64,000 nucleotides of DNA from NCBI GenBank assembly GCA_016706865.1, contig JADJIS010000002.1:1236720-1300719 (forward strand). The letters are read 5' to 3'. Source of the stretch: Bacteroidota bacterium. GTDB lineage: Bacteria > Bacteroidota > Bacteroidia > Chitinophagales > BACL12. Made by a program: the position numbers and the translations under genes. The notes below the pieces were generated by a model. It saw only the letters and a list, made by a program, of their open reading frames with translations, did no database searches and had not been told where the DNA came from. Below are positions 9,617 through 52,170 of the stretch, one piece after another; the first letter of the stretch is position 1; each line of letters starts with the position of its first letter.

Positions 9617-9622
9617 TCAAAA

Positions 9623-23878: not shown

Positions 23879-23898
23879 TTTTTTCTAAATTTAATTAT

Positions 23899-35496: not shown

Positions 35497-37371
35497 ATGA
35501 AGAAAAATTATACCAAATTATTTATTGGAAAACCTGCACTGCTGGTAGCTTTAGCATTAATTTCCATTTCCTCCCGGGCACAATCTTATATTCAATCGGC
35601 CTGCGACTTTACTCCGATGTCAACGGAAGGGACGTTTTTATGTTTAGGGGACGATGAAGTTAGTGCTGCAATTCCCCTCGGCTTTACGTTTGAACTGTAT
35701 GAAGTTCCTTTCACGGAATGTTATATAAGTTCTAACGGTTATTTGTCGTTTACCGCAGGACTTGGTTCTAGTTGTTGCACAGGGATCATTCTCCCATCGG
35801 GCACTTATCCCTACTCTATCTTTTTTGGACAAGAAGATCTTGATCCGAATGCTTGTGTGGATGGTGATATCACATATTATACTACAGGTGCTCCAGGAAG
35901 TCAGGTATTTGTATTAAGCTACACTGATGTGCCTCATTATCCTGGTCCTGAAGGTACATTTCCTATAACAGTTCAAGTTCAATTGTATGAAGGAACTCAG
36001 GAAGTTCGAATTGTTACTACGAATTATAATGGTGATGGGGGACTTTCTACTATGGGTTTAAACAAAAATGCTTTGGAAGCAGACGTTGTGCCGGGAAGAA
36101 ATAGCGAAGATTGGTCAGCTTTTGACGAATGTATCTCATTTTTACCTGATGGACTACCTGATGAAGGTTGCACTGACCCTGAAGCTATAAACTACGATCC
36201 AGGCGCTGAAATTGATAATGGTTCTTGCTTCTTCGGATATTTATATTCCGAATGTGATTATGTAACCATGCCAACTGAAGGTACTATTGTTTGTTTAGGT
36301 GATGATGAAGTTTCGGCCGCAATTCCTATGGGTTTTGATTTTCCATTTTATGGTATTACGCATTCTGATATTTATCTTGGTTCAAATGGCTATGTAACAT
36401 TTAATGCGGGATTAGGAACTGCTTGTTGCACTGGACAAATTTTACCAAACGGTATTTATCCAAATTCAATATTTTTAGGTCAGGAAGATCTTGATCCAAA
36501 TTTCTGTGTTGATGGTGAAGTAAATTATTATACTTCAGGACTTGCCGGTAGTCAAATTTTTGTTGTTAATTATTTAAATGTTCCGCATTATAATGCCGAT
36601 GCTGATCCTACTTATTTTCCGGTTACTGTGCAACTTCAATTATATGAAGCAACCGGGGAGGTTAAAATAGTTGTAACCCAATGGAATAATGACGGTGGTG
36701 CCGCTACTATGGGTTTGAATTATGACGGCGTAATTGCAAATCCAGTTGAAGGAAGAAATTCTGAAATTTGGGATGCATCAGAAGAATGCCATTCCTGGTT
36801 GCCAAGTGAAGGTCCAATTCCGGTTTGTGATATTCCAACGGGTTTATATGCAGATGGAATAACAACAGATGATGCAGTTTTACATTGGGATGCAATGGAT
36901 GGTGCAGATCAATATAGAGTTACACTTCAAAATACAGCTACAGGCTTAATAAAAACACGTGGATTTGAATCAAATGTTGTGGAGATAGTTGACAAATTAA
37001 CTCCGCTAACAACTTATGCTTTCCGTGTTAAAACTGTTTGTTATGATATTCTTGGTGAGATAACACCTCCATCAGAATGGTATTATTTTACAACACTTGG
37101 CCGCATAGGTACAACCGAAGCAGCAATTACCATGTATCCAAATCCAAATGCGGGTCAATTTACATTGCAGATAAGTGATTATAGCGATAATGCATTTGAA
37201 TTATTTGTTTATGATGCAATGGGTAAAATTGTTTATAATAAATCCATTCAAATTGACAATGCAAATTATACAGAGCAGATCAATTTGGAAAATGTGGCAT
37301 CTGGTATTTATCAGGTTAAATTGTTAAACAATGATGCACAATTAACATATCCTGTTGTGATACAGAAATAA
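35497..37371 (+). CDS. T9SS cargo, modular: Cys-rich NIDO-like module A, DDGSC linker, module A', FN3-like (F1), T9SS CTD
   Basis: Signal peptide ...ISSRAQS. Internal duplication: SACDFTPMSTEGTFLCLGDDEVSAAIPLGF... and SECDYVTMPTEGTIVCLGDDEVSAAIPMGF.... The C-terminal MYPNPNAGQFTLQI...GIYQVKLLN is the CTD. Confidence 0.8.
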   Translation: MKKNYTKLFIGKPALLVALALISISSRAQSYIQSACDFTPMSTEGTFLCLGDDEVSAAIPLGFTFELYEVPFTECYISSNGYLSFTAGLGSSCCTGIILPSGTYPYSIFFGQEDLDPNACVDGDITYYTTGAPGSQVFVLSYTDVPHYPGPEGTFPITVQVQLYEGTQEVRIVTTNYNGDGGLSTMGLNKNALEADVVPGRNSEDWSAFDECISFLPDGLPDEGCTDPEAINYDPGAEIDNGSCFFGYLYSECDYVTMPTEGTIVCLGDDEVSAAIPMGFDFPFYGITHSDIYLGSNGYVTFNAGLGTACCTGQILPNGIYPNSIFLGQEDLDPNFCVDGEVNYYTSGLAGSQIFVVNYLNVPHYNADADPTYFPVTVQLQLYEATGEVKIVVTQWNNDGGAATMGLNYDGVIANPVEGRNSEIWDASEECHSWLPSEGPIPVCDIPTGLYADGITTDDAVLHWDAMDGADQYRVTLQNTATGLIKTRGFESNVVEIVDKLTPLTTYAFRVKTVCYDILGEITPPSEWYYFTTLGRIGTTEAAITMYPNPNAGQFTLQISDYSDNAFELFVYDAMGKIVYNKSIQIDNANYTEQINLENVASGIYQVKLLNNDAQLTYPVVIQK

Positions 37372-37390
37372 TGAAGTGAAAAATATGTCA

Positions 37391-37424
37391 GCAGGTCATC
37401 CGAAAAGATGACCTGCTTTTTTTT
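37391..37424 (+). terminator. Rho-independent terminator
   Basis: gcaggtcatc-cgaaaa-gatgacctgc followed by T8. Confidence 0.9.
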
Positions 37425-37638
37425 GTATATATCTCTATATTTCTGCCTAATTTGTTTACTTGAATGCAAGAACTTGGATAAGTTTATGTAGTAACTTGTC
37501 TGGGTTAGGTTGTATTTCGATCAAATTTCTTCTTGAATTTTATTTAAGATTACACCTTGGTTAATTCATTTTTTTATTTACCTTTAAACCACATTTATTA
37601 TAACTATAAACTTAAATTTTAACTAAAAAAACACATTT

Positions 37639-39693
37639 ATGAAAATTTTTAACGTATCAAAACGTATGGCTATCGCAACGCTGAGTTTACTTTTAGCTTC
37701 AGCAACTGCTTTCGGTCAATACTGCACTCCAACCTATACCACAGGTACGGTTGAAGGTGATTATTGCGGTTACGTCGGTTTAGGAACTATTGATAATCCT
37801 ACAGATGGTGCTCCTGCTCCGTTTTACAGTGATTATACGTTTATGTCTACCGATGTTGCTTTGGGTTCATCTTATACAGTAACAGTTGGTTCAGGATCCT
37901 ATACCTCCAATAATGATATTGCAATTTGGATCGATTACAATCACGATGAAGATTTTTATGATGCAGATGAATTGGTAGGAACTGTGGTAGATCTTGGTGC
38001 TTTCGCAACAGGCACAGCAACATTCAGTATTCCTGTAACTGCAATTGGAGGACCAACAAGAATGCGCGTTCGTGAAATTTTTAATATGCCAACAACTCCA
38101 GATGCTTGTGCAAGTTACAGTTTTGGAGAAACTGAAGATTACAGCGTTAATATTATTGGTGGCGCCTTAAATGATGTTGGAGTAGTTGACATTACAAACC
38201 CTGTTTCTGGTGTTGATCTTGGTTTCGAAGATGTAATTGTAACCATTTACAACTACGGTTCAGAACCAGCTTCTGAATTCAATGTGTATTATCAGGTTGA
38301 TGGCGGAATAGTTACAGGTGGAGCATTCCTAGGAACTATTGAACCTTATAGCACTGCTTCTTACACTATGCCTGAAGGTTGGGATTTCAGTTTAGATGGA
38401 TGTTATGATATTGTATCATGGACAGAAATGGAAATTGATGAAAATACAGATAACGACAGTTATACTGAAACTGTTTGTAATCTTGGTCCAATAACAGGAA
38501 CAGGTGCAATGTATATCTATTCCAATAGTACCGGTGGTGAACCTTGGTTTCAGGTAACAAATACAACAGCAATGAATACTGTATTTGGTGCTGAAGGTAT
38601 TGGTTGGACACGCGATTATTATGAGACAGTAGATCCATTACTCGCTTTCTCACCGGATAATTGTTTTATTTTCTTAGAAGGTAGTGATACACATGCAGAT
38701 GAACTTGAAGCTTTCCTATCTGCAAATATTGGAACAATTGAAAGCTGGGTTACTTCAGGTGGTAAATTATTATTGAATTCAGCACCGAATGAAGGTGACG
38801 GAATGAGCTTTGGTTTTGATGGAACTTCCCTCATTTATGATGGTGGTGCTAGTGCAGTTACTGCGGCCGATGCTTCTCATCCAATTTTTAACGGACCAAT
38901 TCTTCCTGTTGGAACTGATTTTACCGGTGGTAACTTTAGCCATGCTCGTGTAGAAGGAACAGATATTACAAGTGTTATTATTGAAACGGGTACTACTGAC
39001 ATTACCTTAGGCGAAAAAGCATGGGGTGATGGTCTTGTTATGTTCGGAGGAATGACCACCAATAATTTCCATTCACCTATATTGGAAGCAGCCAACCTAA
39101 GAGCAAATATTCTAGCTTATTTAAGCTGTATAACATTTGCAGTTTGCGAAATTCCAGGCGGATTATATGCAGATGGAATTACAACTAACGATGCAGTTTT
39201 ACATTGGGATGCTGTTGACGGTGCCGATCAGTATCGCGTAACACTTCAAAATCTTGCAACAGGTTTGATCAAAACAAAAGGATTTTATACTAATATGGTA
39301 GAGATCACTGATAAATTAACTCCGTTAACTGAATACGGTTTCAGAGTTAAAACAGTTTGTTATGATGATCTTGGCGTAATTTCCGCTCCTTCACCATGGT
39401 ATTATTTTATGACTCTCGGTCGTATTGGCGAAAATGAAGATGCTTCAGTTATGTTATATCCAAATCCAAGCAATGGAGTATTTAATTTAAATGTAAATGG
39501 TTATGCAGATAATCAGTTTGAATTAAATGTATCTAACTCCATGGGTCAGATCGTTTATACAAAATCAATTACAGTTAATAATGCTGATTATAATGAGCAA
39601 ATAAACTTAATGAATGTTGCTCCTGGAATGTATCAGATTAGTTTAAAAAATAATGACCTTAATTTAAATTATTCAGTAGTGATCGTCGAATAA
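37639..39693 (+). CDS. T9SS cargo, modular: GEVED domain, CARDB-like, module B (uncharacterised), FN3-like (F1), T9SS CTD
   Basis: QYCTPTYTTGTVEGDYCGYVGLG...SFGETEDYSVNI (GEVED), VVDITNPVSGVDLG...VTIYNYGSEP (CARDB-like), YIYSNSTGGEPWF...ANILAYLSC (B), LYPNPSNGVFNL (CTD). Confidence 0.8.
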   Translation: MKIFNVSKRMAIATLSLLLASATAFGQYCTPTYTTGTVEGDYCGYVGLGTIDNPTDGAPAPFYSDYTFMSTDVALGSSYTVTVGSGSYTSNNDIAIWIDYNHDEDFYDADELVGTVVDLGAFATGTATFSIPVTAIGGPTRMRVREIFNMPTTPDACASYSFGETEDYSVNIIGGALNDVGVVDITNPVSGVDLGFEDVIVTIYNYGSEPASEFNVYYQVDGGIVTGGAFLGTIEPYSTASYTMPEGWDFSLDGCYDIVSWTEMEIDENTDNDSYTETVCNLGPITGTGAMYIYSNSTGGEPWFQVTNTTAMNTVFGAEGIGWTRDYYETVDPLLAFSPDNCFIFLEGSDTHADELEAFLSANIGTIESWVTSGGKLLLNSAPNEGDGMSFGFDGTSLIYDGGASAVTAADASHPIFNGPILPVGTDFTGGNFSHARVEGTDITSVIIETGTTDITLGEKAWGDGLVMFGGMTTNNFHSPILEAANLRANILAYLSCITFAVCEIPGGLYADGITTNDAVLHWDAVDGADQYRVTLQNLATGLIKTKGFYTNMVEITDKLTPLTEYGFRVKTVCYDDLGVISAPSPWYYFMTLGRIGENEDASVMLYPNPSNGVFNLNVNGYADNQFELNVSNSMGQIVYTKSITVNNADYNEQINLMNVAPGMYQISLKNNDLNLNYSVVIVE

Positions 39694-39731
39694 TTATTAT
39701 ATTAATACATTATTAAATTTATAAATAATAA

Positions 39732-39767
39732 AGAGGCTGTTCTTAATTGAGCAGCCTCTTTTTTTTA
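39732..39767 (+). terminator. Rho-independent terminator
   Basis: agaggctgttc-ttaatt-gagcagcctct (one G-U pair) followed by T8. Confidence 0.9.
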
Positions 39768-39995
39768 GGTAATAACTCATTATAAAATTCTTTTTAAATT
39801 AATTTACAACCATGTATTTTGACTGGATTGGAATACATTCTTAAATCATATAAGTTTATTTAACAATTAGTCATAATCACCTGCCTCTCAAGTAAATGGT
39901 TATAAGATGATTAAAATCACTGTCGCGAATAAAAATCTTAAAAAAGTAGGGTAAAGTCAAAAATAATGGTATCATTGTGACCTAAAACTTTAATC

Positions 39996-42188
39996 ATGAA
40001 ACTAATTATTACACAATCTATTACAATTACCCGAAAGATCACATTGTTTATCGCAATGGCTACTTTTGGATTAATTGCGCGTGGTCAATACTATGTGCAA
40101 TCTGACTGCGATTTTTCACCGATGGCAACTGCAGGAACTGCAATTTGTTTAGGAGACGATGAAATGAGTGGTGCTTTTCCAATTGGATTTACCTTTCCAT
40201 TTTATGGTTCTTTGTTTTCCGACTTTTATGTGAGTTCGAACGGCTATATGTCGTTTAGCGGCGGACTCGGAAATGCATGTTGCAGTGGTGCAATTTTGCC
40301 TACGGATCTTTATCCGAATTCCATTTTCTTCGGACAAGAAGACTTGGATCCTAACTTTTGTGTAGATGGTGATATTACCTACTATACAACAGGAGCAGTT
40401 GGGAGTCAGATCTTTGTTTTGTCATTTACAGATGTTCCGCATTATCCTGGACCTGAAGGAGTATTTCCTGTTACCGTTCAAATTCAATTATATGAAGGAA
40501 CTGGAGAGATAAGAATTGTTACCACACAAATGAATAGTGATGGTGGATTTCACACAATGGGTCTCAATCAAAACGGACTTGCATCTGATGTTGTTCCAGG
40601 AAGAAACAGCACCAGCTGGTCAGCATATGAGGAGTGTATCTCTTTCACAGTATTTGAACCTGCTGCAGCTGATGCTGGTGTAATTAATGTAACAAGTCCG
40701 GTTTCAGGTGTTGATCTAGGTTTAGAATCAGTAACTGTTACCGTTCAGAATTTTGGATTTGAAGCAATCTCCGAATTTCCTGTAAGTTATAATGTTGATG
40801 GTGGTGCAGTTATCACTGAAATTTATGGTGGAACTATAGCTCCTTTTTCCTCAGGCTCCTATACATTCAGCTCAATGCACGATTTCAGCATTGATGGATG
40901 TTACAATATTGTTTCCTGGACTAGTCTTGCAGATGATGGCGATGAAACAAATGATAGTTATTCTGAAACTGTTTGTAATCTTGGTCCTATAACAGGAACA
41001 GGTGCGATGTATATCTATTCCAATAGCACCGGTGGCGAACCTTGGTTTCAGGTAACAAATACTGAAGCTATGAATACTGTTTTTGGTGCTGAAGGTACTG
41101 GTTGGACACGCGATTATTTTGAGACTGTAGATCCATTACTTGCTTTCTCACCGGATAATTGTTTTATTTTCTTAGAAGGTAGTGATTCACATGCAATAGA
41201 ACTCGAAGCTTTCCTTGCTGCTAATATGGTAACTATTGAAGGTTGGGTTTCTTCAGGTGGTAAATTATTATTGAATTCCGCACCAAATGAAGGTGATGGT
41301 ATGAGCTTTGGTTTTGATGCAACATCCCTTATTTATGATGGTGGTGCAGGTGCAGTTACTGCAGCTGATGCTTCTCATCCTATTTTTAACGGACCATTAC
41401 TTCCTGTTGGATTGGATTTCACAGGTTCAAACTTTAGTCATGCACGTGTTGCAGGAACAGATATTACAAGTGTTATTATTGAAACAGGTTCCACTGATAT
41501 TACCTTAGGCGAAAAAGTATGGGGTGATGGTCTTGTTATGTTCGGAGGTATGACCACCAATAATTACCATTCACCTTTATTGGAAGCAGCTAACTTAAGA
41601 GCAAATATTCTTGCTTATTTAAGCTGTATAACATTTGCAGTTTGCGAAATTCCAGGCGGATTATATGCAGATGGAATTACAACTGACGATGCAGTTCTGC
41701 ATTGGGATGCTGTTGACGGTGCTGATCAGTATCGTGTAACTCTCCAAAATGTTGCAACCGGTCTTATTAAAACAAAAGGTTTCTATACCAATATGGTAGA
41801 GATCACAGATAAATTAACTCCATTAACCATGTATGGTTTCAGAGTTAAAACTGTTTGTTATGATGATCTTGGTGTTATTTCTGCGCCTTCTGAATGGTAT
41901 TATTTTACTACCCTTGGTCGTATTGGTGAAAATGAAACATCTGTTACCATGTTCCCAAATCCTTCCAATGGTGAGTTTGTACTTCAAATGAATGGTTTAG
42001 AAACCAGCACATTCGAATTGAATGTATACGATGCAATTGGAAATGTGGTTTATAATAAAACCATATCTGTTTCCGGTGCTGATTATTCTGAAACTATTTC
42101 ATTGAATAATGCAAGCGCAGGTATTTATCAGGTTAGTTTGGTTAATTCCACTGTTAAGCTGAATTATCCTATTGTGATTCAGAAGTAA
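39996..42188 (+). CDS. T9SS cargo, modular: module A, CARDB-like, module B, FN3-like (F1), T9SS CTD
   Basis: The N-terminus SDCDFSPMATAGTAICLGDDEMSGAFPIGF... is module A. VINVTSPVSGVDLG...VTVQNFG is CARDB-like. From ETVCNLGPITGTG onward the gene is near-identical to the previous gene. MFPNPSNGEFVLQ is the CTD. Confidence 0.8.
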   Translation: MKLIITQSITITRKITLFIAMATFGLIARGQYYVQSDCDFSPMATAGTAICLGDDEMSGAFPIGFTFPFYGSLFSDFYVSSNGYMSFSGGLGNACCSGAILPTDLYPNSIFFGQEDLDPNFCVDGDITYYTTGAVGSQIFVLSFTDVPHYPGPEGVFPVTVQIQLYEGTGEIRIVTTQMNSDGGFHTMGLNQNGLASDVVPGRNSTSWSAYEECISFTVFEPAAADAGVINVTSPVSGVDLGLESVTVTVQNFGFEAISEFPVSYNVDGGAVITEIYGGTIAPFSSGSYTFSSMHDFSIDGCYNIVSWTSLADDGDETNDSYSETVCNLGPITGTGAMYIYSNSTGGEPWFQVTNTEAMNTVFGAEGTGWTRDYFETVDPLLAFSPDNCFIFLEGSDSHAIELEAFLAANMVTIEGWVSSGGKLLLNSAPNEGDGMSFGFDATSLIYDGGAGAVTAADASHPIFNGPLLPVGLDFTGSNFSHARVAGTDITSVIIETGSTDITLGEKVWGDGLVMFGGMTTNNYHSPLLEAANLRANILAYLSCITFAVCEIPGGLYADGITTDDAVLHWDAVDGADQYRVTLQNVATGLIKTKGFYTNMVEITDKLTPLTMYGFRVKTVCYDDLGVISAPSEWYYFTTLGRIGENETSVTMFPNPSNGEFVLQMNGLETSTFELNVYDAIGNVVYNKTISVSGADYSETISLNNASAGIYQVSLVNSTVKLNYPIVIQK

Positions 42189-42214
42189 TTAATTTAATTT
42201 ATCTAATAAAAAAA

Positions 42215-42246
42215 ATGCCTTGTTTAATTACAAGGCATTTTTTTTT
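42215..42246 (+). terminator. Rho-independent terminator
   Basis: atgccttg-tttaatta-caaggcat followed by a T run. Confidence 0.85.
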
Positions 42247-42601
42247 ATGTATTAGACCCAACTTTTCTAGAAATTAATCAAATAAAAATTTATTTCTTCG
42301 ATAATATTTTTTTATTATTTAATCATTTTATATTCAAATAATAATTGACGATATTAAGTTGAATTATTTAATTAAGATCAGAATTTTTAATTGATTAACT
42401 ATGATCATAAAAAAGTATACCCTTATACATATATTTATTATTGTAATAAGAAGGTATAGTTTATAAGATGACTTAAGTTAATCCCGGACCTCAATTAATA
42501 ATCATATTAAATAGTTATTAATAAAATAAAGAAATATTAGGAATTTTGAAAAAGTAAATTGTATATTAGAGCATTAATTTCACACTTAATAAATTAGAAC
42601 T

Positions 42602-44335
42602 ATGAACAATTTACACTTTGCCAAACGTGCGACTCTCGGTTTGGCTTTTTTCGTTTTTACTGCTTTCTCAGCTTATGCTCAGTATTGTACGCCAACGTAT
42701 ACTACTGGTACCGTTGAAGGAGATTATTGCGGTTATGTTGGTTTGGGAGCAATTTCAAACACAACAGGAGGCGCTGCTTCTCCGTTTTATTCAGATTACA
42801 CCGGAATGAATGCAGATCTTACTGCAGGTACGATGTATACAATTACGCTTGGTTCCGGAAGTTATACTTCTAACAATGACCTTGCAGCATGGATCGATTA
42901 CAATCAGGATAATGATTTTTCTGATGTTGGTGAATTAATTGGAACCGTTGTTGACCTCGGTGCTTTTGCAACAGGTACAGCTGCGTTTACAGTTCCTTTA
43001 ACTGCTCTTAATGGCGCAACAAGATTACGTGTTCGCGAAATTTATGCAATGCCAACTACACCTGATGCATGCGCAAATTATTCATTTGGCGAAACAGAAG
43101 ATTACACTGTTACTATTTCCGGTGGCGGTGGTGGACCTGGCCCAACAGTTGGAAATTATTATATCTATTCCAACACTACTGGTGGTGAACCTTGGTTTCA
43201 AACAACAAACTCTACGGCTATGACCTCTGCATTTGGTGCTGAAGGTTCAGGTTGGACAAGAGATTATTTTGAAACTGTTGATGTTGCTACAGCATTTGGA
43301 CCAGACAATTGTTTTGTATTCATAGATGGTAGCGATTCACATGCACAAGAATGTGAAAATTTCTTAATTGCGAATATGGCTGCTATCGAAGCTTGGGTTT
43401 CTGCCGGCGGAAAATTATTATTGAACTCCGCACCTAACGAAGGTGACGGTATGAGTTTTGGATTTGGTGGAACTTCATTGGTTTATGATGGAGGTTCAGG
43501 ATCCGTTCAAGCTTTTGCTCCTGCACATCCAATTTTCAGCGGACCATTTACACCGGTAGGAACTGCATGGACAGGTTCAAACTTTAGTCATGCTCAGGTT
43601 ACCGGAACAGGTATTGCAACAATTATAAATGAAACAGGATTTGCCGACATTACATTAGGAGAAAAAGTTTGGGGTTCTGGTATCGTTATGTTTGGTGGAA
43701 TGACTACAAATAATTTCCATTCTCCATTAACTGAAGCAGCAAATTTAAGAGCAAACATTCTTGTTTATTTAAGTTGTTTAGAAGGATTATGCCCTGCACC
43801 AACCGATCTTATGGCTGATGCAATTACCGGTACTTCCGCTAACTTATCATGGGCTGCTTCCGATAATTCGGGTGGTTACCATCTTTCAGTTTATACACTC
43901 GACGAAGTACTTGTTGCAAAACAAAAAGTATTAGGCGGCGCAACCAACTGGAATGTTGGCGGTTTAACACCAGGTACTGATTATGCATTCCACGTACGTT
44001 CTATTTGTACAGTTCTTGGAACAAAATCTCCAATTTCTTATAACTATTATTTCTCAACTCCTGCTCGTTTAGGTGATGAAAATACTAGTGTAAGTTTATA
44101 TCCTAATCCAAGCAACGGACAATTTACATTAGCATTAAATGGTTATGAAAACAATAATGTTGAATTAAATATTTATAATTCAACAGGACAAATTGTTTAT
44201 GCATCTTCTATTAATGTAAACAGTGCTGATTATACTGAAATGATAAACCTCGGAACTATTGCTCCGGGTATGTATCAGGTTAGTTTAACAGGTAATTCAA
44301 ATACGAATAATTATTCAATTGTAATTACTGAATAA
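42602..44335 (+). CDS. T9SS cargo, modular: GEVED domain, Gly-rich linker, module B, FN3-like (F2), T9SS CTD
   Basis: QYCTPTYTTGTVEGDYCGYVGLG...SFGETEDYTVTISGGGGGPGP, then YYIYSNTTGGEPWF...ANILVYLSC. LSWAASDNSGGYHLSVY is FN3-like. LYPNPSNGQFTLAL is the CTD. Confidence 0.8.
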   Translation: MNNLHFAKRATLGLAFFVFTAFSAYAQYCTPTYTTGTVEGDYCGYVGLGAISNTTGGAASPFYSDYTGMNADLTAGTMYTITLGSGSYTSNNDLAAWIDYNQDNDFSDVGELIGTVVDLGAFATGTAAFTVPLTALNGATRLRVREIYAMPTTPDACANYSFGETEDYTVTISGGGGGPGPTVGNYYIYSNTTGGEPWFQTTNSTAMTSAFGAEGSGWTRDYFETVDVATAFGPDNCFVFIDGSDSHAQECENFLIANMAAIEAWVSAGGKLLLNSAPNEGDGMSFGFGGTSLVYDGGSGSVQAFAPAHPIFSGPFTPVGTAWTGSNFSHAQVTGTGIATIINETGFADITLGEKVWGSGIVMFGGMTTNNFHSPLTEAANLRANILVYLSCLEGLCPAPTDLMADAITGTSANLSWAASDNSGGYHLSVYTLDEVLVAKQKVLGGATNWNVGGLTPGTDYAFHVRSICTVLGTKSPISYNYYFSTPARLGDENTSVSLYPNPSNGQFTLALNGYENNNVELNIYNSTGQIVYASSINVNSADYTEMINLGTIAPGMYQVSLTGNSNTNNYSIVITE

Positions 44336-44360
44336 TTATTTTTTTAATACATATTTATAA

Positions 44361-44391
44361 GCTGCTTCCATTTGGAAGCAGCTTTTTTTTT
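44361..44391 (+). terminator. Rho-independent terminator
   Basis: gctgcttcc-attt-ggaagcagc followed by T9. Confidence 0.9.
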
Positions 44392-44575
44392 ATCATTTTA
44401 TATATTAAAAATTAAATTATTTATTAAATTAAATTATCATATTTAATTTATTTATAATCATAAATAAAATCAAAAAGTAACATATTAATTTTTAATATAT
44501 ACGCTTATAAAATATTTGAAAAATTATTTGTTTTATAGAATTATAAATTGTAGACTTGTTGCCTAAATAACTAAT

Positions 44576-46441
44576 ATGAGAAAACTAAACACAAAAATCC
44601 TGTCGCTCACAACGACAGCACTGATCGCTATTGCGATCTTTTCCTCCACGCTTCTGGCGCAGTCCTACGTGCAGTCCACCTGCGACTACGCGCCAATGGC
44701 TACAACAGGCACCGCGATTTGCCTGGCCGATGACGCAGTTAGCGCAGCAATTCCATTAGGATTCAGCTTCAGTTTTTATGATGTTGCTTATTCTAATTGT
44801 TATGTAAGCTCTAACGGCTATTTATCATTTAACACTGGCCTTGGCACTGGATGTTGCACAGGGGCTATTCTTCCTTCCGGGACTTATCCGAATTCCATTT
44901 TTTTCGGACAAGAAGACCTTGATCCAAACAGCTGTATAGATGGTGATATCACCTATTATACAACAGGTGCAGCAGGAAGTATGATCTTCGTTTTAAGTTT
45001 TGTTGCTGTTCCACATTATCCCGGTCCGGAAGGTACATTCCCTGTATCAGTACAGGTGCAATTACACGAAGGTACAAATGAGGTAAAAATCGTTACTACC
45101 GAATATAACGGTGATGGTGGATTGTCAACAATGGGCCTAAATCAAAACGCTACAAATGCCGATGTCGTTACCGGCAGAAATAGTGCAGCATGGTCAGCCT
45201 TCAACGAATGTATTTCGTTTATGCCAATGGTTGTTGAAACTTATGGATGTACAGATCCAGCAGCTGTTAATTATGATCCGGCTGCAGATATTGATGATGG
45301 ATCTTGTTTTTATGGTTATGATTATGCAACCTGCGATTACGCTCCTATGGCCACAGAAGGAACAGCAGTTTGTTTGGCTGATGATGCAGTAAGTGCAGCA
45401 ATTCCAATTGGATTTGATTTTCCATTTTATGGCGTTGATCATTCTTCTGCTTATATAGGATCCAATGGTTTTGTATCCTTTAATTCAGGTTTAGGTTCAG
45501 CTTGTTGCACTGGTCAAATTTTACCAAATGCATTTTACCCAAATACAATATTTTTAGGACAGGAAGATTTTGATCCAAATACATGTATTGACGGTGATAT
45601 TACTTATTATACAACAGGTGCTCCAGGTAGCCAGGTTTTTGTTGTGAGTTTTGTAAACGTTCCACATTATCCAGGTCCGGAAGGTACATTCCCTGTTTCT
45701 GTACAATTACAATTACATGAATCAACTGGCGAAATAAAAATTGTAGTTACAGAAATTAATGGAGATGGTGGAGCTGCAACAATGGGATTAAATTTAGACG
45801 GAACTGTTGCCAATTGGGTAGAAGGCAGAAACTCTGAAGTTTGGAGCGCATTCTCTGAATGTCATTCATGGATGCCTGCCGCTGGTATGGATGAATGTCC
45901 TAGTCCCGCCGGTTTAGCTGCCGATGATATAACAGGAACTTCTGCTAATTTAAGTTGGGAAGCTTCGTTAAATTCAGAAGGTTATCATCTGTCTGTTTAT
46001 ACAACAACAGGAGATTTGGTAATGAAGAAAAAAGTTTTAGGTGGTGCAACAAACTGGATGGTTACAGGTTTAACTCCTGGCACTGATTATGCCTTCCACG
46101 TACGTTCGGTATGTGTTGCCCTGGGCGATAATTCACCGATTTCGTATAACTATTATTTCTCTACACCTGCACGTTTAGGAGTTGAAGAAACAAAAGTTAC
46201 TTTATTCCCAAATCCTAATACAGGACAATTTACACTTGCATTAAATGGGTATGAAATTGGAAATGTAGAATTAAATATCTCTAATTCAACAGGACAAATT
46301 GTATACAGCTCTTCAATTAATGTTACAGGTGCTAATTATACTGAAATGATCGACCTTGGTGCTATTGCTCCGGGAATGTATCAGGTAAGTTTGGCCGGCA
46401 ATTCAAATGTTGTTAACTACAGCGTTGTTATTACCGAATAA
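44576..46441 (+). CDS. T9SS cargo, modular: module A, DDGSC linker, module A', FN3-like (F2), T9SS CTD
   Basis: STCDYAPMATTGTAICLADDAVSAAIPLGF... and ATCDYAPMATEGTAVCLADDAVSAAIPIGF.... The linker is CTDPAAVNYDPAADIDDGSCFYG. The F2 and CTD tail closely resembles that of the 42602 gene. Confidence 0.8.
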   Translation: MRKLNTKILSLTTTALIAIAIFSSTLLAQSYVQSTCDYAPMATTGTAICLADDAVSAAIPLGFSFSFYDVAYSNCYVSSNGYLSFNTGLGTGCCTGAILPSGTYPNSIFFGQEDLDPNSCIDGDITYYTTGAAGSMIFVLSFVAVPHYPGPEGTFPVSVQVQLHEGTNEVKIVTTEYNGDGGLSTMGLNQNATNADVVTGRNSAAWSAFNECISFMPMVVETYGCTDPAAVNYDPAADIDDGSCFYGYDYATCDYAPMATEGTAVCLADDAVSAAIPIGFDFPFYGVDHSSAYIGSNGFVSFNSGLGSACCTGQILPNAFYPNTIFLGQEDFDPNTCIDGDITYYTTGAPGSQVFVVSFVNVPHYPGPEGTFPVSVQLQLHESTGEIKIVVTEINGDGGAATMGLNLDGTVANWVEGRNSEVWSAFSECHSWMPAAGMDECPSPAGLAADDITGTSANLSWEASLNSEGYHLSVYTTTGDLVMKKKVLGGATNWMVTGLTPGTDYAFHVRSVCVALGDNSPISYNYYFSTPARLGVEETKVTLFPNPNTGQFTLALNGYEIGNVELNISNSTGQIVYSSSINVTGANYTEMIDLGAIAPGMYQVSLAGNSNVVNYSVVITE

Positions 46442-46464
46442 TTTATTAATTAAACATTTAAAAA

Positions 46465-46496
46465 AGCTGTTTCTTAAAAGAAACAGCTTTTTTTTT
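46465..46496 (+). terminator. Rho-independent terminator
   Basis: agctgtttct-taaa-agaaacagct followed by a T run. Confidence 0.9.
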
Positions 46497-46557
46497 GCCA
46501 ATTAAAATTTTATACTTATTTTTATAAACTATAATTTTCACATTTTAAAATCATTTT

Positions 46558-47820
46558 ATGAAAACAAATTTTATCAGATCGATCGTTTTTTCTTTATTTG
46601 TATTTTGTACATTCCTTGGCGCACGGGCACAAAATGTATATTATATTTATTCCAACTCAACCGGAGGGCCTGAACCGTGGTTTACCACAACAAACACTAC
46701 TGCAATGAACACTACTTTTGGTGTGGAAGGCACTGATTGGTTCCGGAGGTATTTTGAAACGCTGGTTCCTGCTGCTATTTTCTCTCCTACAACATGTTTT
46801 GTTTTTTTGGAAGGAGGTGATAATCATGCAGATGAATTGGAAACATTTTTTCTGGCAAATAAACCACTCATTCAGTCATGGGTTGCTGCAGGAGGGAAAT
46901 TATTTATGAATGCAGCACCCAATGAAGGTGATGGAATGAGTTTCGGATTTGGAGGGGTATCTTTAAATTATCCATGGTATACTAGTTCTGTAACAGCTTT
47001 AATTCCGGCACATCCAATTTTTAACGGCCCTCATTTGCCGGTAGGCGCAGGCTGGAGCGGTTCTTCATTTAGTCACGCCACAATTTCCGGAGCCGGATTA
47101 ACAAAATTAATCGGAGATACTTTTGATCCAACACTAAGTGTGTTATCAGAATTAGCCTGGGGATCCGGAAAAGTTTTGTTCGGGGGAATGACTACAAATA
47201 ATTTTCATGAACCTGAGCTTGAATCGGCAAATTTGCGTGCAAATATTTTGGAATATCTTGCCTGTGAAGCAATTTGTATTCCTGAGGTTCCAGAAGGTTT
47301 ATATACTGACAATATAACCTCCACACAAGTGAAATTGCATTGGGATGCAATACCGGGAGTTGATAAATATGCAGCAAGTGTTTATACTGCGGCAGGAGTA
47401 TTTGTTGTTAAGAAAAAAACCAGTGCAACATTTGCCAATATTACCGGGTTGACACCAGGTACTGATTATTTATTTAAGGTGAGATCCATTTGTCTGGATG
47501 CCGGTACAATGTCATCATTTTCTGCACCATCATATTTCTCAACATTAATGAGATTGGGTGAAAATGAAAATGATATCGCCATTTATCCAAATCCATCTAA
47601 CGGGAATTTTTCGTTGAATATAACGAATGCAATAAATACTAATTACGATCTTACTATTATCAATTCATTGGGCCAAACCTTACTTTCAAGGGAATTAATT
47701 ATCAATGAATCTGATTTCAGTACCGAAATTAATATGGAAAATGTAACCCCTGGAATTTATATTGTTAATCTTAGAAACGATTTAACCAATATCAATTATT
47801 CTATTTTTATAACGGATTAA
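46558..47820 (+). CDS. T9SS cargo, minimal form: module B, FN3-like (F3), T9SS CTD
   Basis: Signal peptide, then directly VYYIYSNSTGGPEPWF...ANILEYLAC. VKLHWDAIPGVDKYAASVY is FN3-like. IYPNPSNGNFSLNI is the CTD. Confidence 0.8.
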   Translation: MKTNFIRSIVFSLFVFCTFLGARAQNVYYIYSNSTGGPEPWFTTTNTTAMNTTFGVEGTDWFRRYFETLVPAAIFSPTTCFVFLEGGDNHADELETFFLANKPLIQSWVAAGGKLFMNAAPNEGDGMSFGFGGVSLNYPWYTSSVTALIPAHPIFNGPHLPVGAGWSGSSFSHATISGAGLTKLIGDTFDPTLSVLSELAWGSGKVLFGGMTTNNFHEPELESANLRANILEYLACEAICIPEVPEGLYTDNITSTQVKLHWDAIPGVDKYAASVYTAAGVFVVKKKTSATFANITGLTPGTDYLFKVRSICLDAGTMSSFSAPSYFSTLMRLGENENDIAIYPNPSNGNFSLNITNAINTNYDLTIINSLGQTLLSRELIINESDFSTEINMENVTPGIYIVNLRNDLTNINYSIFITD

Positions 47821-47838
47821 ACCAAAAGTATTTTTATT

Positions 47839-47882
47839 AATTCCTGCAAGTTAAATTAATAATTTGCGGGAATTATTTTTTT
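47839..47882. terminator. Possible bidirectional terminator hairpin between convergent genes
   Basis: aattcctgcaa ... ttgcgggaatt (11 bp with one G-U pair, ~14-nt loop) followed by a T run that runs into the queE stop codon. Confidence 0.45.
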
Positions 47883-48480
47883 ACGGAACTTGTATAAATT
47901 TATGTATTTGAATGGAAATTTCCCAGACAGGATTTTGTTTTACATAATCAATTATAAGAGGCATTACTTCTTCGCGTTTGCTCCATTCGGGTTGGAGATA
48001 TAATTTACAATTTTTACCAACCATTTTTCGATTTTCTTCCGCCCAAACAAGATCACTTTTATTATATACCACCACCTTTAATTCATTTGCATGATTTGCA
48101 ACATCACTCAAAGGTTTTTTAAATTTTTTAGGCGAGAAGCATATCCAATCCCATTCTCCGGTTAACGGATATGCTCCGGATGTTTCCAGATTGATCTGAT
48201 ATTTATTTTCATGAAGAGATGATGTTAATTCTGTGAGATCATACATCAATGGCTCTCCACCGGTTATTACGATAATTTCTACGGGATATTTTTTGATATC
48301 CTCCATGATGGAGGATATACTTTTTAAAGGATGTTTTTCTGCATCCCAACTTTCTTTAACATCACACCAAACACAACCTACATCACATCCTCCCAAACGA
48401 ATAAAATATGCAGCTCTTCCCTGGTAAAATCCTTCACCCTGAATTGTGTAAAATTGTTCCATTACAGGAAGCTGGTTCAT
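47881..48480 (-). CDS. queE: 7-carboxy-7-deazaguanine synthase (radical SAM) QueE
   Basis: FYTIQGEGFYQGRAAYFIRLGGCDVGCVWCD contains the CxxxCxxC cluster. Confidence 0.9.
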   Translation of the reverse strand: MNQLPVMEQFYTIQGEGFYQGRAAYFIRLGGCDVGCVWCDVKESWDAEKHPLKSISSIMEDIKKYPVEIIVITGGEPLMYDLTELTSSLHENKYQINLETSGAYPLTGEWDWICFSPKKFKKPLSDVANHANELKVVVYNKSDLVWAEENRKMVGKNCKLYLQPEWSKREEVMPLIIDYVKQNPVWEISIQIHKFIQVP

Positions 48481-48491
48481 TTTTTAATTTA

Positions 48492-49379
48492 TTAATTTAG
48501 TTTACTATGTTGGTTGTTATAAGCTTTCATGGTATTCATCAAAAGTGAAATTACTGTCATCAAACCAACCCCACCAGGAACCGGTGAAATAGCGCTGCAT
48601 TTCGGAGCCACCTCGTTGAAATTTACATCACCTTTAATTAAATATCCTTTTTCATTATCTGCATCCACACGTGAAATACCTACATCGATCACAATTGCAC
48701 CTTCTTTAACCATATCTGCAGTTACAAATTCGGGTTTTCCCATTGCAGCAATTAAAATATCAGCTTGTAAACAAATTTCTTTTAAATTTTTTGAACGGCT
48801 ATGACATAAAGTAACCGTGCAATTTCCCGGATTATTATTCCTCGATAATAAAATACTTAAGGGTGTTCCAACAATATTACTTCTGCCAATTATCACACAA
48901 TGTTTACCTGATGTTTCAACATGGTATCTTTCTAACAGTGTTACAATTCCAGCCGGCGTTGCTGATACAAATGCAGGTAAACCTAATTGCATTCTGCCTA
49001 AATTAATGGGATGAAAACCATCGGCATCTTTATTGGGATCAATAGCCTCAATTATATTTGTTTCATTAATATGTTTTGGAAGAGGTAATTGAATAATAAA
49101 TCCATTAATATCGATGTTGCTATTCAGATCATGCACTACTTTTAACAGTTCCTTTTCGCTTATCGTTTCCGGAAGATGAATAAATGTAGATAACATGCCC
49201 ACAGCATTGCACAATTTAATTTTGCTCTGCACATACGTAGTACTCGCACCATCATTTCCCACTAAAACAGCTGCTAAATGCGGCAGTTTTTTCCAAGCAG
49301 CTTTTAATGCTTCAATTTCAGTTTTTATTTCAGCCTGAATTTCCTGCGATATTTTTTTTCCGTCGAGTATTAATGGCAT
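48492..49379 (-). CDS. folD: Bifunctional methylenetetrahydrofolate dehydrogenase / methenyl-THF cyclohydrolase FolD
   Basis: [11 protein letters not shown]...[42 protein letters not shown]. Confidence 0.95.
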
Positions 49380-49550
49380 AAAAAGTTTTTGTTCAGGGGT
49401 CAGGGGTCAAGAGTCATTAGTCAGGAGTCAATAGTCATTAGTCAGGAGTAAAAACATCCGGCTCATGTGGATCAATCTCACCACTCACTACTCACTCAGA
49501 GTCAATGGTCAGTGGTGAGTGGTGAGTATGCTCCAACCTGGATTTAAACT

Positions 49551-49634
49551 CAGAACTCAGAACCCAGAACCCAGAACCCAGAACTCAGAACCCAGAACTC
49601 AGAACCCAGAACTCAGAACCCAGAACTCAAAACT
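49551..49634. repeat. Tandem heptamers CAGAACY (~12 copies) just 3' of lepA
   Basis: cagaactcagaacccagaacccagaacccagaactcagaacc... It is preceded at 49393-49449 by GGTCAGG/GTCATTAGTCAGGAG blocks and at 49477-49526 by a 12-bp perfect stem (ctcaccactcac/gtgagtggtgag). Confidence 0.9.
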
Positions 49635-49640
49635 CTCCCA

Positions 49641-51434
49641 TCAATCCTCATTCAATTTCAACACTGCTAAAAACGCTTCCTGAGGCACTTCTACAGTTCC
49701 AATCTGACGCATGCGTTTTTTTCCTTTCTTTTGTTTTTCCAATAATTTTCTTTTTCTGGAAATATCACCACCATAACATTTTGCGGTAACATCTTTACGC
49801 ATCGCACTTATTGTTTCTCTCGCAATAATTTTAGCTCCAATGGCTGCCTGAATCGCAATAACGAATTGTTGTTTAGGTAATAGCTCTTTTAATTTTGCAC
49901 ATAACCTGCTGCCGAATTCATATGCTTTATCCCGGTGAATTAATGCTGAAAATGCATCCACATTTTCCCCGTTTAATTTTATATCTAATTTTATAAGATC
50001 GCCTTCGCGGTAATCTATTAATTCATAATCGAAACTGGCATAACCGCGGGAAATGGATTTTAATTTATCGTAAAAATCAAATACAATTTCCGTTAAGGGC
50101 ATCTCCCAGATTAATTCAACACGTGTTGTGGTGAGATATATTTGGTTTAATAAAATACCTCTTTTGTCCATACATAATTTCATGATGGTCCCAATATAAT
50201 CGGGAGCAGTAATTACCTGAGCTCTTATATAAGGTTCCTCTATATGATCGATATATGCAGGATCCGGAAGATCGGTTGGATTATGCACTACGATCTTTTT
50301 TCCGCCTGTGGTAAAACAATCAAACGATACGTTTGGAACGGTAATGATCACATTTTGATCAAATTCACGTTCGAGTCTTTCTGTAATAATTTCAAGATGC
50401 AATAAACCTAAAAAGCCGCATCGAAAACCAAATCCTAAAGCGACAGAACTTTCGGGTTCAAAAATGAGAGACGCATCATTTAATTGTAATTTCTCAATTG
50501 CATCGCGCAAACCTTCATAATCGTCATTATCGATTGGATAAACTCCCGCAAATACCATCGGTTTCACATCTTTAAATCCCTCCACTATATTACTGCAAGG
50601 ATTATTTTTAAGTGTGATGGTATCACCAACCTTTATCTCTTTTGCTTCTTTAATTCCCGTAATAATATATCCAACATCGCCGGCTTTAACTGCATCTCTT
50701 GGTTCATATAATAAACGAAGAATACCCACTTCATTTGCCTCGTAATCATTTTCAGTATTTACAAATTTTACACGGTCGCCTTTTTTTAACGTGCCCTGAA
50801 AAATTCTGTAATATGCAACCACTCCCCGGTATGAATTAAATACCGAATCAAATATCAATGCCTGAAGCGGTGCAGTTTCGCTGCCTTTAGGAGCAGGTAC
50901 TCTGTGAATAATAGCGTCCAGAATTTTTTCAATACCAAGTCCTGTTTTACCACTTGCTTCCAGAATACTTTCGCGACTACAACCAATAAGATCAACTACC
51001 TGATCCTTCACCTCCTCGATCATTGCACCATCCATATCAATTTTATTAATTATCGGGATGATCTCAAGATTGTGTTCTATTGCGAGATAAAGATTTGATA
51101 TGGTTTGCGCCTGAATACCCTGAGTAGCATCCACCAACAACAATGCACCTTCACAGGCTGCAATACTTCTGGAAACTTCATAACTGAAGTCAACATGGCC
51201 GGGTGTATCGATCAGGTTCAATACGTATTCTTTTCCCTCATAGTGAAAATCCATTTGAATGGCATGGCTCTTTATTGTGATACCACGTTCACGCTCAATA
51301 TCCATATCATCCAACACCTGTGCCTTGGAATCCCTTTCAGAAACAGTATGTGTAACCTCTAATAACCTGTCGGCCAATGTACTTTTTCCATGATCAATAT
51401 GTGCTATTATGCAAAAATTTCTTATATTCTCCAT
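49641..51434 (-). CDS. lepA: Elongation factor 4 (LepA)
   Basis: [34 protein letters not shown]. Length is 597 aa. Confidence 0.97.
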
Positions 51435-51636
51435 CTTTCCTTACTTACCTTTTTCAATCAGGTGCAAAGGTAATTAAAAGAGAGGCCTTCGTATAACTGA
51501 AAAACAAGGAGTTCGTGTTATAGTAAAATTTACAATTTACGAGTTGATTTAGGTTGATCCGGAACGGTCTGAATAAATTTAAGTTCCTATATTTGCGGCG
51601 CTTATCAGCACAACAATTTATTAAACCAGACTACAT

Positions 51637-52170
51637 ATGACGCATAATTATCAATCTGCCTCCATGCCCAAAAGAACTATAGCTTACCTTATAGATTCCA
51701 TTTTAATTATCGCAGTTGTTTCTGCATTTTTATTTGTTCGTATGGGAAAAACCGATGCGGAGGCTTTTATAGACGAAGGAAAGCCTGGATTAGCGGATAA
51801 GTATCCGTTTGTAGCAACTGCAGAAGCTGTTATTTTTGATCCGCAACGAATGGTGTATATGGAAAGCTTCTTAAAAAATTACACCTTGGATGCCTTGATA
51901 GGACTGCTTTTATTACCAATGCTCTATTTTATCTTTTTTGAAGGAATATGGGGAGGCACCATTGGAAAACTACTTTTAGGTATCAGAGTTCGCCGCAAGG
52001 ACGGAGGAAAGATCAATTTTGGGATTTCCTTTATACGTTTTTTAGGCAAAATAGTTTCGACAATACCATTTTTTCTAGGCTTTATTTTGGCCTTTTTCGA
52101 TAAAAAACATCAAACTCTGCACGACAAGATAGCCAATACCCTGGTTTTGAATAAAGGCACGGGGATTTAG
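51637..52170 (+). CDS. RDD-family membrane protein
   Basis: Three TM segments, GIRVRRKDGG and HQTLHDKIANTLV, typical of RDD domains. Confidence 0.8.
   Translation: MTHNYQSASMPKRTIAYLIDSILIIAVVSAFLFVRMGKTDAEAFIDEGKPGLADKYPFVATAEAVIFDPQRMVYMESFLKNYTLDALIGLLLLPMLYFIFFEGIWGGTIGKLLLGIRVRRKDGGKINFGISFIRFLGKIVSTIPFFLGFILAFFDKKHQTLHDKIANTLVLNKGTGI

Follow-up and report, generated by a model that had tools for sequence, protein, structure and literature searches.

A tandem array of modular type IX secretion system cargo genes in a Chitinophagales bacterium, remodelled by recombination between paralogues

The gene array and its modules

A stretch of 64,000 nt from an uncultured Chitinophagales bacterium, hereafter called the window, contains an array of six tandem genes, g1 to g6, which spans approximately 12.3 kb (35497-47820) and encodes predicted type IX secretion system (T9SS) cargo proteins. 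All six open reading frames (ORFs) are located on the plus strand, are complete and intact, and start exactly where an earlier note on this DNA had placed them. That note had described a signal peptide, a fibronectin type III (fn3) domain and a T9SS C-terminal sorting domain (CTD, module C) in each gene, which is borne out by the translations and by Pfam and NCBIfam searches. The part between signal peptide and fn3 domain is built from a few modules, termed A, A', GEVED, X and B, and the fn3 domains fall into three types, F1 to F3. The genes and their parts, the latter delimited with module hidden Markov models (HMMs), are:

35497-37371, plus strand: g1, 624 amino acids, A-LINK-A'-F1-C; signal peptide, A 35581-36150, LINK 36163-36234, A' 36232-36807, F1 36823-37086, CTD 37132-37368
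37639-39693, plus strand: g2, 684 amino acids, GEVED-X-B-F1-C; signal peptide, GEVED 37717-38154, X 38167-38493, B 38509-39138, F1 39142-39405, CTD 39454-39690
39996-42188, plus strand: g3, 730 amino acids, A-X-B-F1-C, putative chimera; signal peptide, A 40086-40655, X 40665-40991, B 41007-41636, F1 41640-41903, CTD 41949-42185
42602-44335, plus strand: g4, 577 amino acids, GEVED-GGGGGPGP-B-F2-C; signal peptide, GEVED 42680-43117, GGGGGPGP linker 43121-43144, B 43157-43786, F2 43787-44050, CTD 44096-44332
44576-46441, plus strand: g5, 621 amino acids, A-LINK-A'-F2-C; signal peptide, A 44660-45229, LINK 45242-45313, A' 45311-45880, F2 45893-46156, CTD 46202-46438
46558-47820, plus strand: g6, 420 amino acids, B-F3-C; signal peptide, B 46639-47274, F3 47275-47535, CTD 47581-47817

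All-versus-all BLASTP of the six proteins together with the module HMMs reproduced the previously proposed module table exactly, the LINK segment being the only addition. E-values for module homology range from 1e-33 down to 0, and chance is therefore not an issue; the N-terminal regions are homologous modules used in different orders. Over its full length, g5 is 60% identical to g1, while its F2-C tail shares 77% identity with the tail of g4. The A head of g3 is about 70% identical to the first A modules of g1 and g5, its X-B-F portion resembles g2, and the best reading of g3 is that of a chimera in which an A head of the g1 type has been joined to an X-B-F body of the g2 type. The grouping of the tails into three types is upheld by the per-module identities, which amount to 80-95% within F1 and 75% within F2, compared with 37-41% for F1 against F2 and 37-50% for F3 against the other types. 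At the nucleotide level, the paralogues are 60-83% identical; the longest exact match between them comprises 72 nt and the majority are not longer than 23 nt.

Export signals and recognised domains

The CTD is detected in all six proteins by PF18962 (36-46 bits, cut-off 27) as well as by TIGR04183 (25-39 bits, cut-off 23), with the match lying at the extreme C-terminus, no more than a few residues away from the stop codon. The signal peptides were called by reading the translations directly: all six N-termini have a basic start, a hydrophobic core and an A/G-Q junction (RAQS, FGQY, RGQY, YAQY, LAQS and RAQN for g1 to g6, respectively), and none contains a lipobox cysteine. Such a junction fits the 'Q-rule' of Bacteroidota for substrates of signal peptidase I. 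Type A CTDs are known to use the PorV route, and the CTD of the T9SS substrate RemZ has been found bound inside the translocon protein SprA (PMC12618676, PMC10994853).

Among the N-terminal modules, GEVED (PF20009) is recognised well above its cut-off of 24.4 bits in g2 (67.1 bits) and g4 (67.9 bits), with E-values of about 1e-18 and alignments that cover positions 2-78 of the 78-position profile; its motif reads FGETEDY. This domain was first defined in the fibrillar adhesin CshA (PMC10952558). The fn3 profile (PF00041, cut-off 25 bits) is passed by g1 (25.5), g4 (37.8), g5 (39.8) and g6 (27.7), and g2 (23.8) and g3 (21.7) lie slightly under it, with F modules that are 80-83% identical to that of g1. 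The earlier note had named module X CARDB. CARDB (PF07705) is indeed the top Pfam match in ten of ten X copies, but the scores of 12.4-18.4 bits (E-values of 0.0026-0.19) always stay below the threshold of 22.7 bits, and X is best called CARDB-like rather than CARDB.

The same site in related species

The array is flanked by an amidohydrolase (Amidohydro_3) gene on one side and by the convergent genes QueE-FolD-LepA on the other. The same site could be read in other assemblies, whose loci are numbered with the prefix L, and its content is as follows:

L019, the most distant syntenic relative (LepA 90% identical): one family gene, GEVED-X-B-F-C (g2 type)
L009, L017 and L018: three genes, g1-g2-g3, with QueE directly after
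Window and L001-L006: six genes
L007 (g3 90% identical): g1; a DUF4907-like small ORF with an M-X-B-F1-C gene; g2; g3; a small ORF with an M-Gly-B-F2-C gene in place of g4; g5

Hence, L007 carries six genes and two small ORFs at this site. A further locus, L021, belongs with the three-gene loci but is cut within g2. No g6 is present in L007, L009 or L019, and g1 orthologues were found in L007, L009, L010 and L011. Both copy number and head content thus vary between species, and the set is neither fixed among relatives nor composed of known enzymes. The re-assortment of heads and tails, which had been noticed in the window, extends further: representative proteins from other genomes show the combinations A-F-C, A-B-F-C, GEVED-LINK-A-F-C and LINK-A-F-C behind other heads, so that mixing of modules characterises the family as a whole and is not peculiar to the window.

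In L010, whose g3-family match is 69% identical, a T9SS-tagged sulfatase gene (6223-8262) lies upstream of g1 in the place of the amidohydrolase; the upstream flank of the array is therefore not conserved in that lineage. The two small ORFs of L007 (4946-5332 and 12218-12637) encode secreted DUF4907-like proteins of 128 and 139 amino acids (E = 1e-4). Each of them directly precedes a gene with an M head (5335 to about 5950 and 12634 to about 13250), which comprises approximately 170 amino acids with an Asp-box and a sub-threshold match to Reelin_subrepeat-B. It seems that the small ORF and the M head travel together as a cassette of two parts; no remnants of either are present in the window.

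Polymorphic toxin or contact-dependent inhibition systems were considered for the array and rejected. Their polarity is the opposite, as in the array the heads vary and the C-terminal tail is common, and neither toxin domains nor small downstream ORFs occur in the window. The small ORFs of L007 are situated upstream of their genes and are DUF4907-like, unlike immunity genes, which are located downstream of toxins.

Recombination between paralogues

Comparative data demonstrate recombination between the paralogues. The earlier note had suggested that the locus diversifies in this way, and this is supported by the gene number at the site (1, 3, 6 or 6 + 2), by a head that has been replaced at module boundaries and by a conversion tract. 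The two segments concerned are:

40935-41875, plus strand: gene-conversion tract in g3, comprising the end of X, B and fn3; partner in g2 at about 38437-39378; boundaries approximate
42598-43144, plus strand: head-swap cassette of g4, comprising a signal-peptide part (42598-42674), GEVED (about 42675-43120) and the linker (43121-43144)

Most modules follow positional orthology; for instance, the A modules of g3 in the window and in L007 are 95% identical. Within g3 of the window, modules A, X and C track orthology, whereas B is 88-90% identical to g2-type B modules and only 70% identical to its positional orthologue in L009. A sliding window on the nucleotide alignment of g2 and g3 revealed that the heads are about 40% and the X modules 50-70% identical; identity rises to 84-96% over about 950 bp from the end of X to fn3 and drops to 57% in the CTD. 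In the B-F tract, the two genes of the same genome are 90% (window) and 89% (L007) identical compared with 82-83% between orthologues, and the corresponding synonymous divergence (dS) is 0.37 and 0.48 compared with 0.86-1.0. Accordingly, the tract clusters by genome, and X and the CTD cluster by orthologue. Such a pattern is the hallmark of gene conversion that went on in each of the two lineages independently once they had split and that keeps the B-fn3 core of g2 and g3 alike. In L009, the fn3 segment alone is homogenised.

In the case of g4, colinearity in blastn is broken between 42267-43119 of the window and 12270-13241 of L007. In L007, the place of the GEVED head of g4 is taken by a small ORF followed by a new signal peptide and an M head, and both versions rejoin at the poly-Gly linker before B. 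The 77 nt that encode the signal-peptide part of g4 are 87% identical to the start of the L007 small ORF.

Stability within the species and selection

The exact g3 protein is present in 48 blocks of the sequence collection, including the assemblies GCA_016708595.1 and GCA_963852155.1. For exact g3, 23 contigs were read, all of which show the same six-gene order, and six places (L001-L006) were examined. In these six independent assemblies, the six genes, their order and their flanks are all as in the window, and the array is therefore structurally invariant within the species. Differences from the window amount to 0-3 positions in each of g1 to g5 and to 4-9 positions in g6; they include a nonsense change in g4 (L001) and a 1-bp indel in g5 (L002). 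Expressed as single nucleotide polymorphisms (SNPs), this corresponds to 3-7 per kb in g6 and 0-1.4 per kb in g1 to g5. The downstream flank from QueE to the RDD gene (47881-52170) differs at 18.6 and 7 positions per kb in L003 and L004, respectively, next to a nearly identical array, which suggests a within-species recombination boundary close to the 3' end of the array.

The ratio of nonsynonymous to synonymous substitutions (dN/dS) between orthologues is 0.054-0.084 for g1, g2, g3 and g5, while the B-F-C part of g4 gives 0.14. Values for the neighbouring genes QueE (0.061) and FolD (0.087) are similar, and the amidohydrolase lies in the same range. The array is thus under purifying selection like its housekeeping neighbours. 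Diversifying selection was considered as well and is ruled out by the dN/dS values of 0.05-0.14.

These data bear on the possibility that the array is a programmed or rapid variation system, in which cassette recombination would yield new head-tail mixes within a population, for example for escape from phages or grazers. Surface proteins are commonly used as phage receptors, the architecture bears a superficial likeness to cassette systems, and inter-copy recombination is real and recurs in two lineages. However, all six genes are complete and none is a silent cassette, as every copy is equipped with start codon, signal peptide and terminator. Inverted matches in the array are limited to four short AT-rich ones, which do not exceed the noise level, and no recombinase or reverse-transcriptase gene is present among the neighbours examined. 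Moreover, the six assemblies are structurally identical and nearly free of SNPs, exact matches between the paralogues are as short as described above, and dN/dS is as low as in housekeeping genes. We regard programmed variation as very improbable; diversification by ordinary recombination between paralogues takes place on an evolutionary, between-species timescale.

An extremely improbable explanation is that the genes are redundant, decaying duplicates or an artefact of repeat assembly. The nonsense change in g4 and the indel in g5, each seen in one same-species assembly, would be in line with decay; in the window, however, all six reading frames are intact and the orthologues are under strong purifying selection. 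Recovery of the same gene order in the 23 contigs and of exact g3 in the 48 blocks argues against an artefact, and with a nucleotide identity of 60-83% the paralogues are far too divergent to be collapsed or mis-joined. Programmed variation and an artefact can thus both be regarded as practically excluded.

Terminators and spacers

Each gene of the array is followed by a hairpin with a T-run:

37390-37417, plus strand: hairpin and T-run after g1, 11 pairs, 6 GC
39730-39761, plus strand: hairpin and T-run after g2, 13 pairs, 6 GC
42208-42245, plus strand: hairpin and T-run after g3, 16 pairs, 4 GC
44359-44384, plus strand: hairpin and T-run after g4, 11 pairs, 6 GC
46460-46496, plus strand: hairpin and T-run after g5, 15-bp stem, 4-nt loop, fold z = -4.2
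47838-47875, plus strand: AT-rich hairpin and T-run between the convergent genes g6 and QueE, 16 pairs, 4 GC

The hairpin after g5 was missed by the pattern scan and was found in the sequence and its fold. Terminators had previously been assigned to g1 to g5 with g6 as a weaker case; the hairpin after g6 likewise has a T-run, so that the description holds for all six genes. The upstream spacers have a GC content of 14-26% and are thus AT-rich throughout. They had also been described as long, which applies to four of them (240-413 bp) but not to those of g1 and g6, which merely comprise 114 and 116 bp. The claim that the genes are independent expression units is in keeping with a terminator-like hairpin after each gene; the search for promoters is considered below.

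Module A and the LINK segment

Single sequences of module A have no match in Pfam or among PDB sequences. A profile (A3), in contrast, matches residues 52-192 of chain D of PDB entry 8gl6 with E = 5.4e-15 (PDB sequence profile search), and this chain is the sole relative of module A among PDB sequences. It has been identified as RemZ (PMC10994853). Based on a word-index search with three matches, module A had looked like a near-orphan, which was a sensitivity artefact, as shown by exhaustive profile search: the A1 profile retrieved 9082 proteins at E <= 1e-3, not all of which contain module A, as this profile held some fn3 and CTD columns. Of the 148 best new matches of that search, 105 contain full-length A domains, 144 in all. 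Module A is often repeated, with 13 copies detected at most, in proteins of 2000-6000 amino acids, and the relatives scanned also possess SprB, PKD, HYR or Ig-like domains and T9SS or IPTL tails. Module A is part of a large domain family that lacks a Pfam entry.

The predicted structure of module A is all-beta with a mean predicted local distance difference test (pLDDT) score of 95.8, and a Foldseek search against PDB returned no significant match (best E = 0.72). Module A has no structural neighbour in PDB because the RemZ entry resolves only the CTD (PMC10994853). The label NIDO (PF06119, cut-off 25 bits), which the earlier note had brought up, could not be maintained: the A copies of the window do not match this profile even at E <= 10, and sub-threshold matches occur in 9 of 30 members of the A family (best E = 4e-4). 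In three full-length relatives that were scanned, the alignment is restricted to approximately positions 2-53 of the 186-position profile. Remote homology between A and NIDO is nevertheless a reasonable idea and possible.

In g1 and g5, modules A and A' are joined by LINK, a 24-amino acid motif bounded by cysteines (GCTDPxAxNYDPxAxIDxGSCF), which has no Pfam match. It is also located ahead of A under other heads, namely in the proteins P0071 (GEVED-LINK-A-F-C), P0073 and P0098, and may act as a small disulfide-bonded connector.

Judged from their relatives, adhesion or binding is most likely the role of the modules. A more specific version of this would be that the A-bearing proteins of g1, g3 and g5 are gliding adhesins of the RemA type, propelled along the gliding track, with the array providing alternative adhesins for different surfaces. 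RemA possesses a lectin domain and is moved along the cell, and its lectin function was reportedly described by Shrivastava et al. in 2012. The idea draws on the many A-domain relatives with SprB repeats and PKD or Ig-like domains, which are typical of Bacteroidota surface adhesins. The array proteins, however, comprise only 420-730 amino acids as opposed to 1436 in RemZ, with which the overlap is limited to about 140 residues, and Pfam searches detected neither a lectin domain nor a long repeat stalk in them. Furthermore, half of the array (g2, g4 and g6) lacks module A. A gliding function thus appears quite improbable in comparison with a more general role in surface binding.

Module B

Module B has no match in Pfam, NCBIfam or PDB sequences. 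Its 62 homologues are mostly secreted proteins of approximately 260 amino acids, in which B is the sole domain; named sources are Nostoc, a metagenome-assembled genome (MAG) of Thermoanaerobaculia and Crocinitomix, and several homologues are tagged with PEP-CTERM, IPTL-CTERM or T9SS signals. An AlphaFold2 model built on the alignment of homologues (pLDDT 93, predicted template modelling score 0.91) gave 87 Foldseek matches in PDB at E <= 1e-3, the best with E = 6.7e-8, at template modelling (TM) scores of 0.5-0.58 and 7-13% identity. The closest structures are non-catalytic middle domains of glycosidases of the glycoside hydrolase (GH) families GH42, GH164 and related ones, and the amidotransferase domain of aminodeoxychorismate (ADC) synthase is also among the matches. 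Module B is therefore predicted to adopt a class I glutamine-amidotransferase-like (flavodoxin-like alpha/beta) fold. At the position of the nucleophile elbow, which was placed after strand 91-95 of the model, 36 of 54 sequences have serine and 18 have alanine; no cysteine is invariant, and canonical amidotransferase chemistry is therefore not conserved in B. The earlier note had recognised no catalytic motif in any module; this stands as far as the canonical amidotransferase nucleophile is concerned, but other invariant polar residues of B may be catalytic.

It could be argued that B is a secreted enzyme or a highly specific receptor, that the GEVED, A and M heads target it to different substrates in the manner of carbohydrate-binding modules and that the A-A' proteins are accessory binders. 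B is deeply conserved across phyla with invariant or near-invariant polar residues (including three histidines, N95, N99, E100 and R203), and the fold class to which it is assigned includes hydrolases. As B also stands alone in secreted proteins that bear one or another of three sorting tags, it is functional by itself, and the B-fn3 core is kept uniform by gene conversion while the heads differ. On the other hand, neither a cysteine nor a serine is conserved as a nucleophile, the best structural matches are non-catalytic and distant, and B has no relative in Pfam, NCBIfam or among PDB sequences. The neighbours of stand-alone B genes in a Nostoc genome and two other assemblies are not recurrent and point to no consistent pathway, and B is missing from two of the six genes (g1 and g5). 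This reading, the main alternative, seems unlikely. The enzyme and gliding-adhesin interpretations are both compatible with the evolutionary account given above and differ from the assignment as surface binding proteins just in the biochemical function.

On an unrelated metagenomic contig (L014), two stand-alone B genes, P0010 and P0019, are located in tandem at 8001-8996 and 9194-10216. Tandem duplication of B is therefore not limited to the lineage of the array.

Proposed origin and function of the array

We consider it likely that the array is a lineage-specific, tandemly expanded family of T9SS type A cargo, probably surface binding proteins, which has been remodelled by ordinary recombination between paralogues. 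Each gene would be transcribed independently as a complete, separately terminated unit. By analogy with Flavobacterium and Porphyromonas, the products would be exported by the Sec system, and their CTDs would then be recognised by the SprA translocon and the PorV shuttle (PMC10994853, PMC12618676), so that the proteins end up on the cell surface or are released from it. The fn3 domain might serve as a spacer, and the actual work would be done by the N-terminal modules, with A (homologous to the N-terminal part of RemZ and faintly NIDO-like), GEVED (as in CshA), the CARDB-like and presumably Ig-type X and B as presumed binding or adhesion modules. The array would have been built, and would still be undergoing change, by homologous and illegitimate recombination between neighbouring copies, including tandem duplication, joining of chimeras at linkers, exchange of whole heads, loss of genes and gene conversion, and each combination, once formed, would be kept by purifying selection. 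The outcome would be a small, stable set of surface proteins, whose head-tail mix differs by species and which does not undergo fast switching.

Several points weigh against parts of this interpretation. A scan for sigma-70 promoters remained at background (56 found, 57.5 expected), and none of the six spacers contains the Bacteroidota -7 motif TAnnTTTG; no promoter was thus found to go with the terminators, which are consistent with independent expression. The series of one, three and six genes is not polarised by a species tree, and growth and loss both fit it. As the same-species loci were chosen by an identical g3, structural variation within the species may be under-sampled. With respect to function, binding or adhesion is a prediction for modules of which A and B have no characterised homologue of known activity, and the conserved polar set of B (W18, N95-x-A-P-N-E-G, H129, H150, H193, R203 and N205) would suit an enzyme active site just as well as a site for a ligand.

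A bolder, improbable variant would see the array as a system for the exchange of heads and effectors that is maintained by selection, as opposed to a passively evolving cluster of paralogues. B would then be a new extracellular enzyme or specific receptor, gene conversion would keep the B-fn3 core uniform so as to provide a recombination hinge, and the heads (GEVED, the RemZ/NIDO-like A, and M) would be swapped at fixed linkers to retarget it. As a corollary of this variant, module A would correspond in bacteria to the NIDO domain of animals; a search for a solved structure of an animal NIDO domain yielded none.

Irrespective of these variants, remodelling of a T9SS cargo family by recombination has left an unusually clean record of how bacterial surface proteins are built, with one, three and six genes at the same site, breakpoints at domain linkers and a datable conversion tract. 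The array is thus well suited as an example with which to teach and to test how domains are shuffled among T9SS cargo proteins. Many adhesin-like proteins of Bacteroidota, including RemZ, contain module A, which has no solved structure. Module B is predicted to be displayed on the surface in several phyla via three unrelated sorting systems. According to its isolate name, the MAG with L007 apparently stems from an activated-sludge or membrane-bioreactor sample, and the species of the window presumably comes from such samples as well. Since attachment of cells to one another and to surfaces matters in sludge communities, the array proteins are reasonable candidates for adhesion in flocs or of epibionts. 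None of these findings overturns current understanding.

Other genes in the window

Seven kb downstream of the array, a gene on the minus strand (54649-55467) encodes a short outer-membrane protein of the PorV/PorQ family with 272 amino acids; the score of 91.9 bits is marginal with regard to the cut-off of 90, and the search covered the 64-kb window only. It is followed after 4 bp on the same strand by a gene for a protein of 716 amino acids (52495-54645, minus strand), which has no Pfam or NCBIfam match, and the two may constitute a specialised T9SS shuttle with its partner. Besides the array, the window contains three further CTD cargo genes, resulting in nine T9SS cargo genes within 27 kb. 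Two of them form a second tandem pair (57392-59479 and 59625-61709, both minus strand), whose products of 695 and 694 amino acids are 43% identical over their full length and consist of a large N-terminal region with Asp-box-like SxDGGxT/SW motifs, a PKD domain and a type A CTD. The third (55732-57150, plus strand, 472 amino acids) adjoins this pair.

Upstream of the array, a gene at 14657-17179 (plus strand) encodes a protein of 840 amino acids that combines Lamin-tail, CHB_HEX_C/Fn3-associated and CotH kinase domains, an unusual architecture of the secreted-kinase type. A pair of genes at 20777-25305 (plus strand) codes for a SusC-like TonB-dependent receptor (1033 amino acids) and a SusD-like protein (468 amino acids); it is followed by aldehyde dehydrogenase genes and not by glycoside hydrolase genes.

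Comparison with known systems

The earlier note knew of no described system with this architecture, which overstates the novelty of the array, since the same phenomenon is known from the KLIKK proteases (PMC4404884), from Kgp and HagA (PMC5266723) and from CshA and its GEVED domain (PMC10952558). The KLIKK protease arrays of Tannerella forsythia comprise six genes in two clusters (PMC4404884). Like the array described here, they consist of clustered genes for T9SS cargo, in which varied N-terminal domains are attached to a shared C-terminal extension and CTD, and one species has the entire array while a close relative lacks it. However, the KLIKK heads are active proteases and the CTDs are nearly identical, whereas no protease or known catalytic domain is found in the array of the window, its tails are 30-96% identical with three types of fn3 domain, and A, B, X and GEVED are reused in several orders.

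The Porphyromonas gingivalis proteins Kgp, RgpA and HagA (PMC5266723) are likewise T9SS surface proteins, whose shared adhesin modules are exchanged by recombination, thereby giving rise to mosaics. In contrast to the array of the window, which is a single tandem, invariant within the species and rearranged between species, their genes are dispersed and vary between strains. With CshA (PMC10952558), the array shares the GEVED domain, which is found above threshold in g2 and g4, and domain shuffling has been argued to be the main bacterial route to new adhesins (PMC10952558). CshA, however, is a very long, LPXTG-anchored protein of a Gram-positive bacterium, and its GEVED domain is located after the ligand-binding domain NR2 and before the repeat stalk, whereas in the window GEVED forms the N-terminal end of short T9SS cargo proteins, which lack NR2.

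RemZ, a gliding-adhesin homologue of Flavobacterium johnsoniae (PMC10994853), is a T9SS substrate with a type A CTD like the predicted cargo of the array, and its residues 52-192 are homologous to module A. RemA and RemZ are proteins of about 1400 amino acids, unlike the short proteins of the array, which have no lectin domain and no stalk. Chimera formation and exchange of segments by recombination between surface paralogues have also been described for the FLO genes of yeast (PMC3512402) and for babA/babB of Helicobacter (PMC5483490). These belong to other kingdoms or phyla and differ in secretion and anchoring; furthermore, their chimeras arise within strains and lead to rapid changes in phenotype, which is not seen for the array of the window. 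Taken together, the family works like the KLIKK, gingipain/HagA, CshA and FLO cases and is a member of none of them, and it adds a clean syntenic series, a conversion tract and, with A and B, two large domain families that have no Pfam entries.

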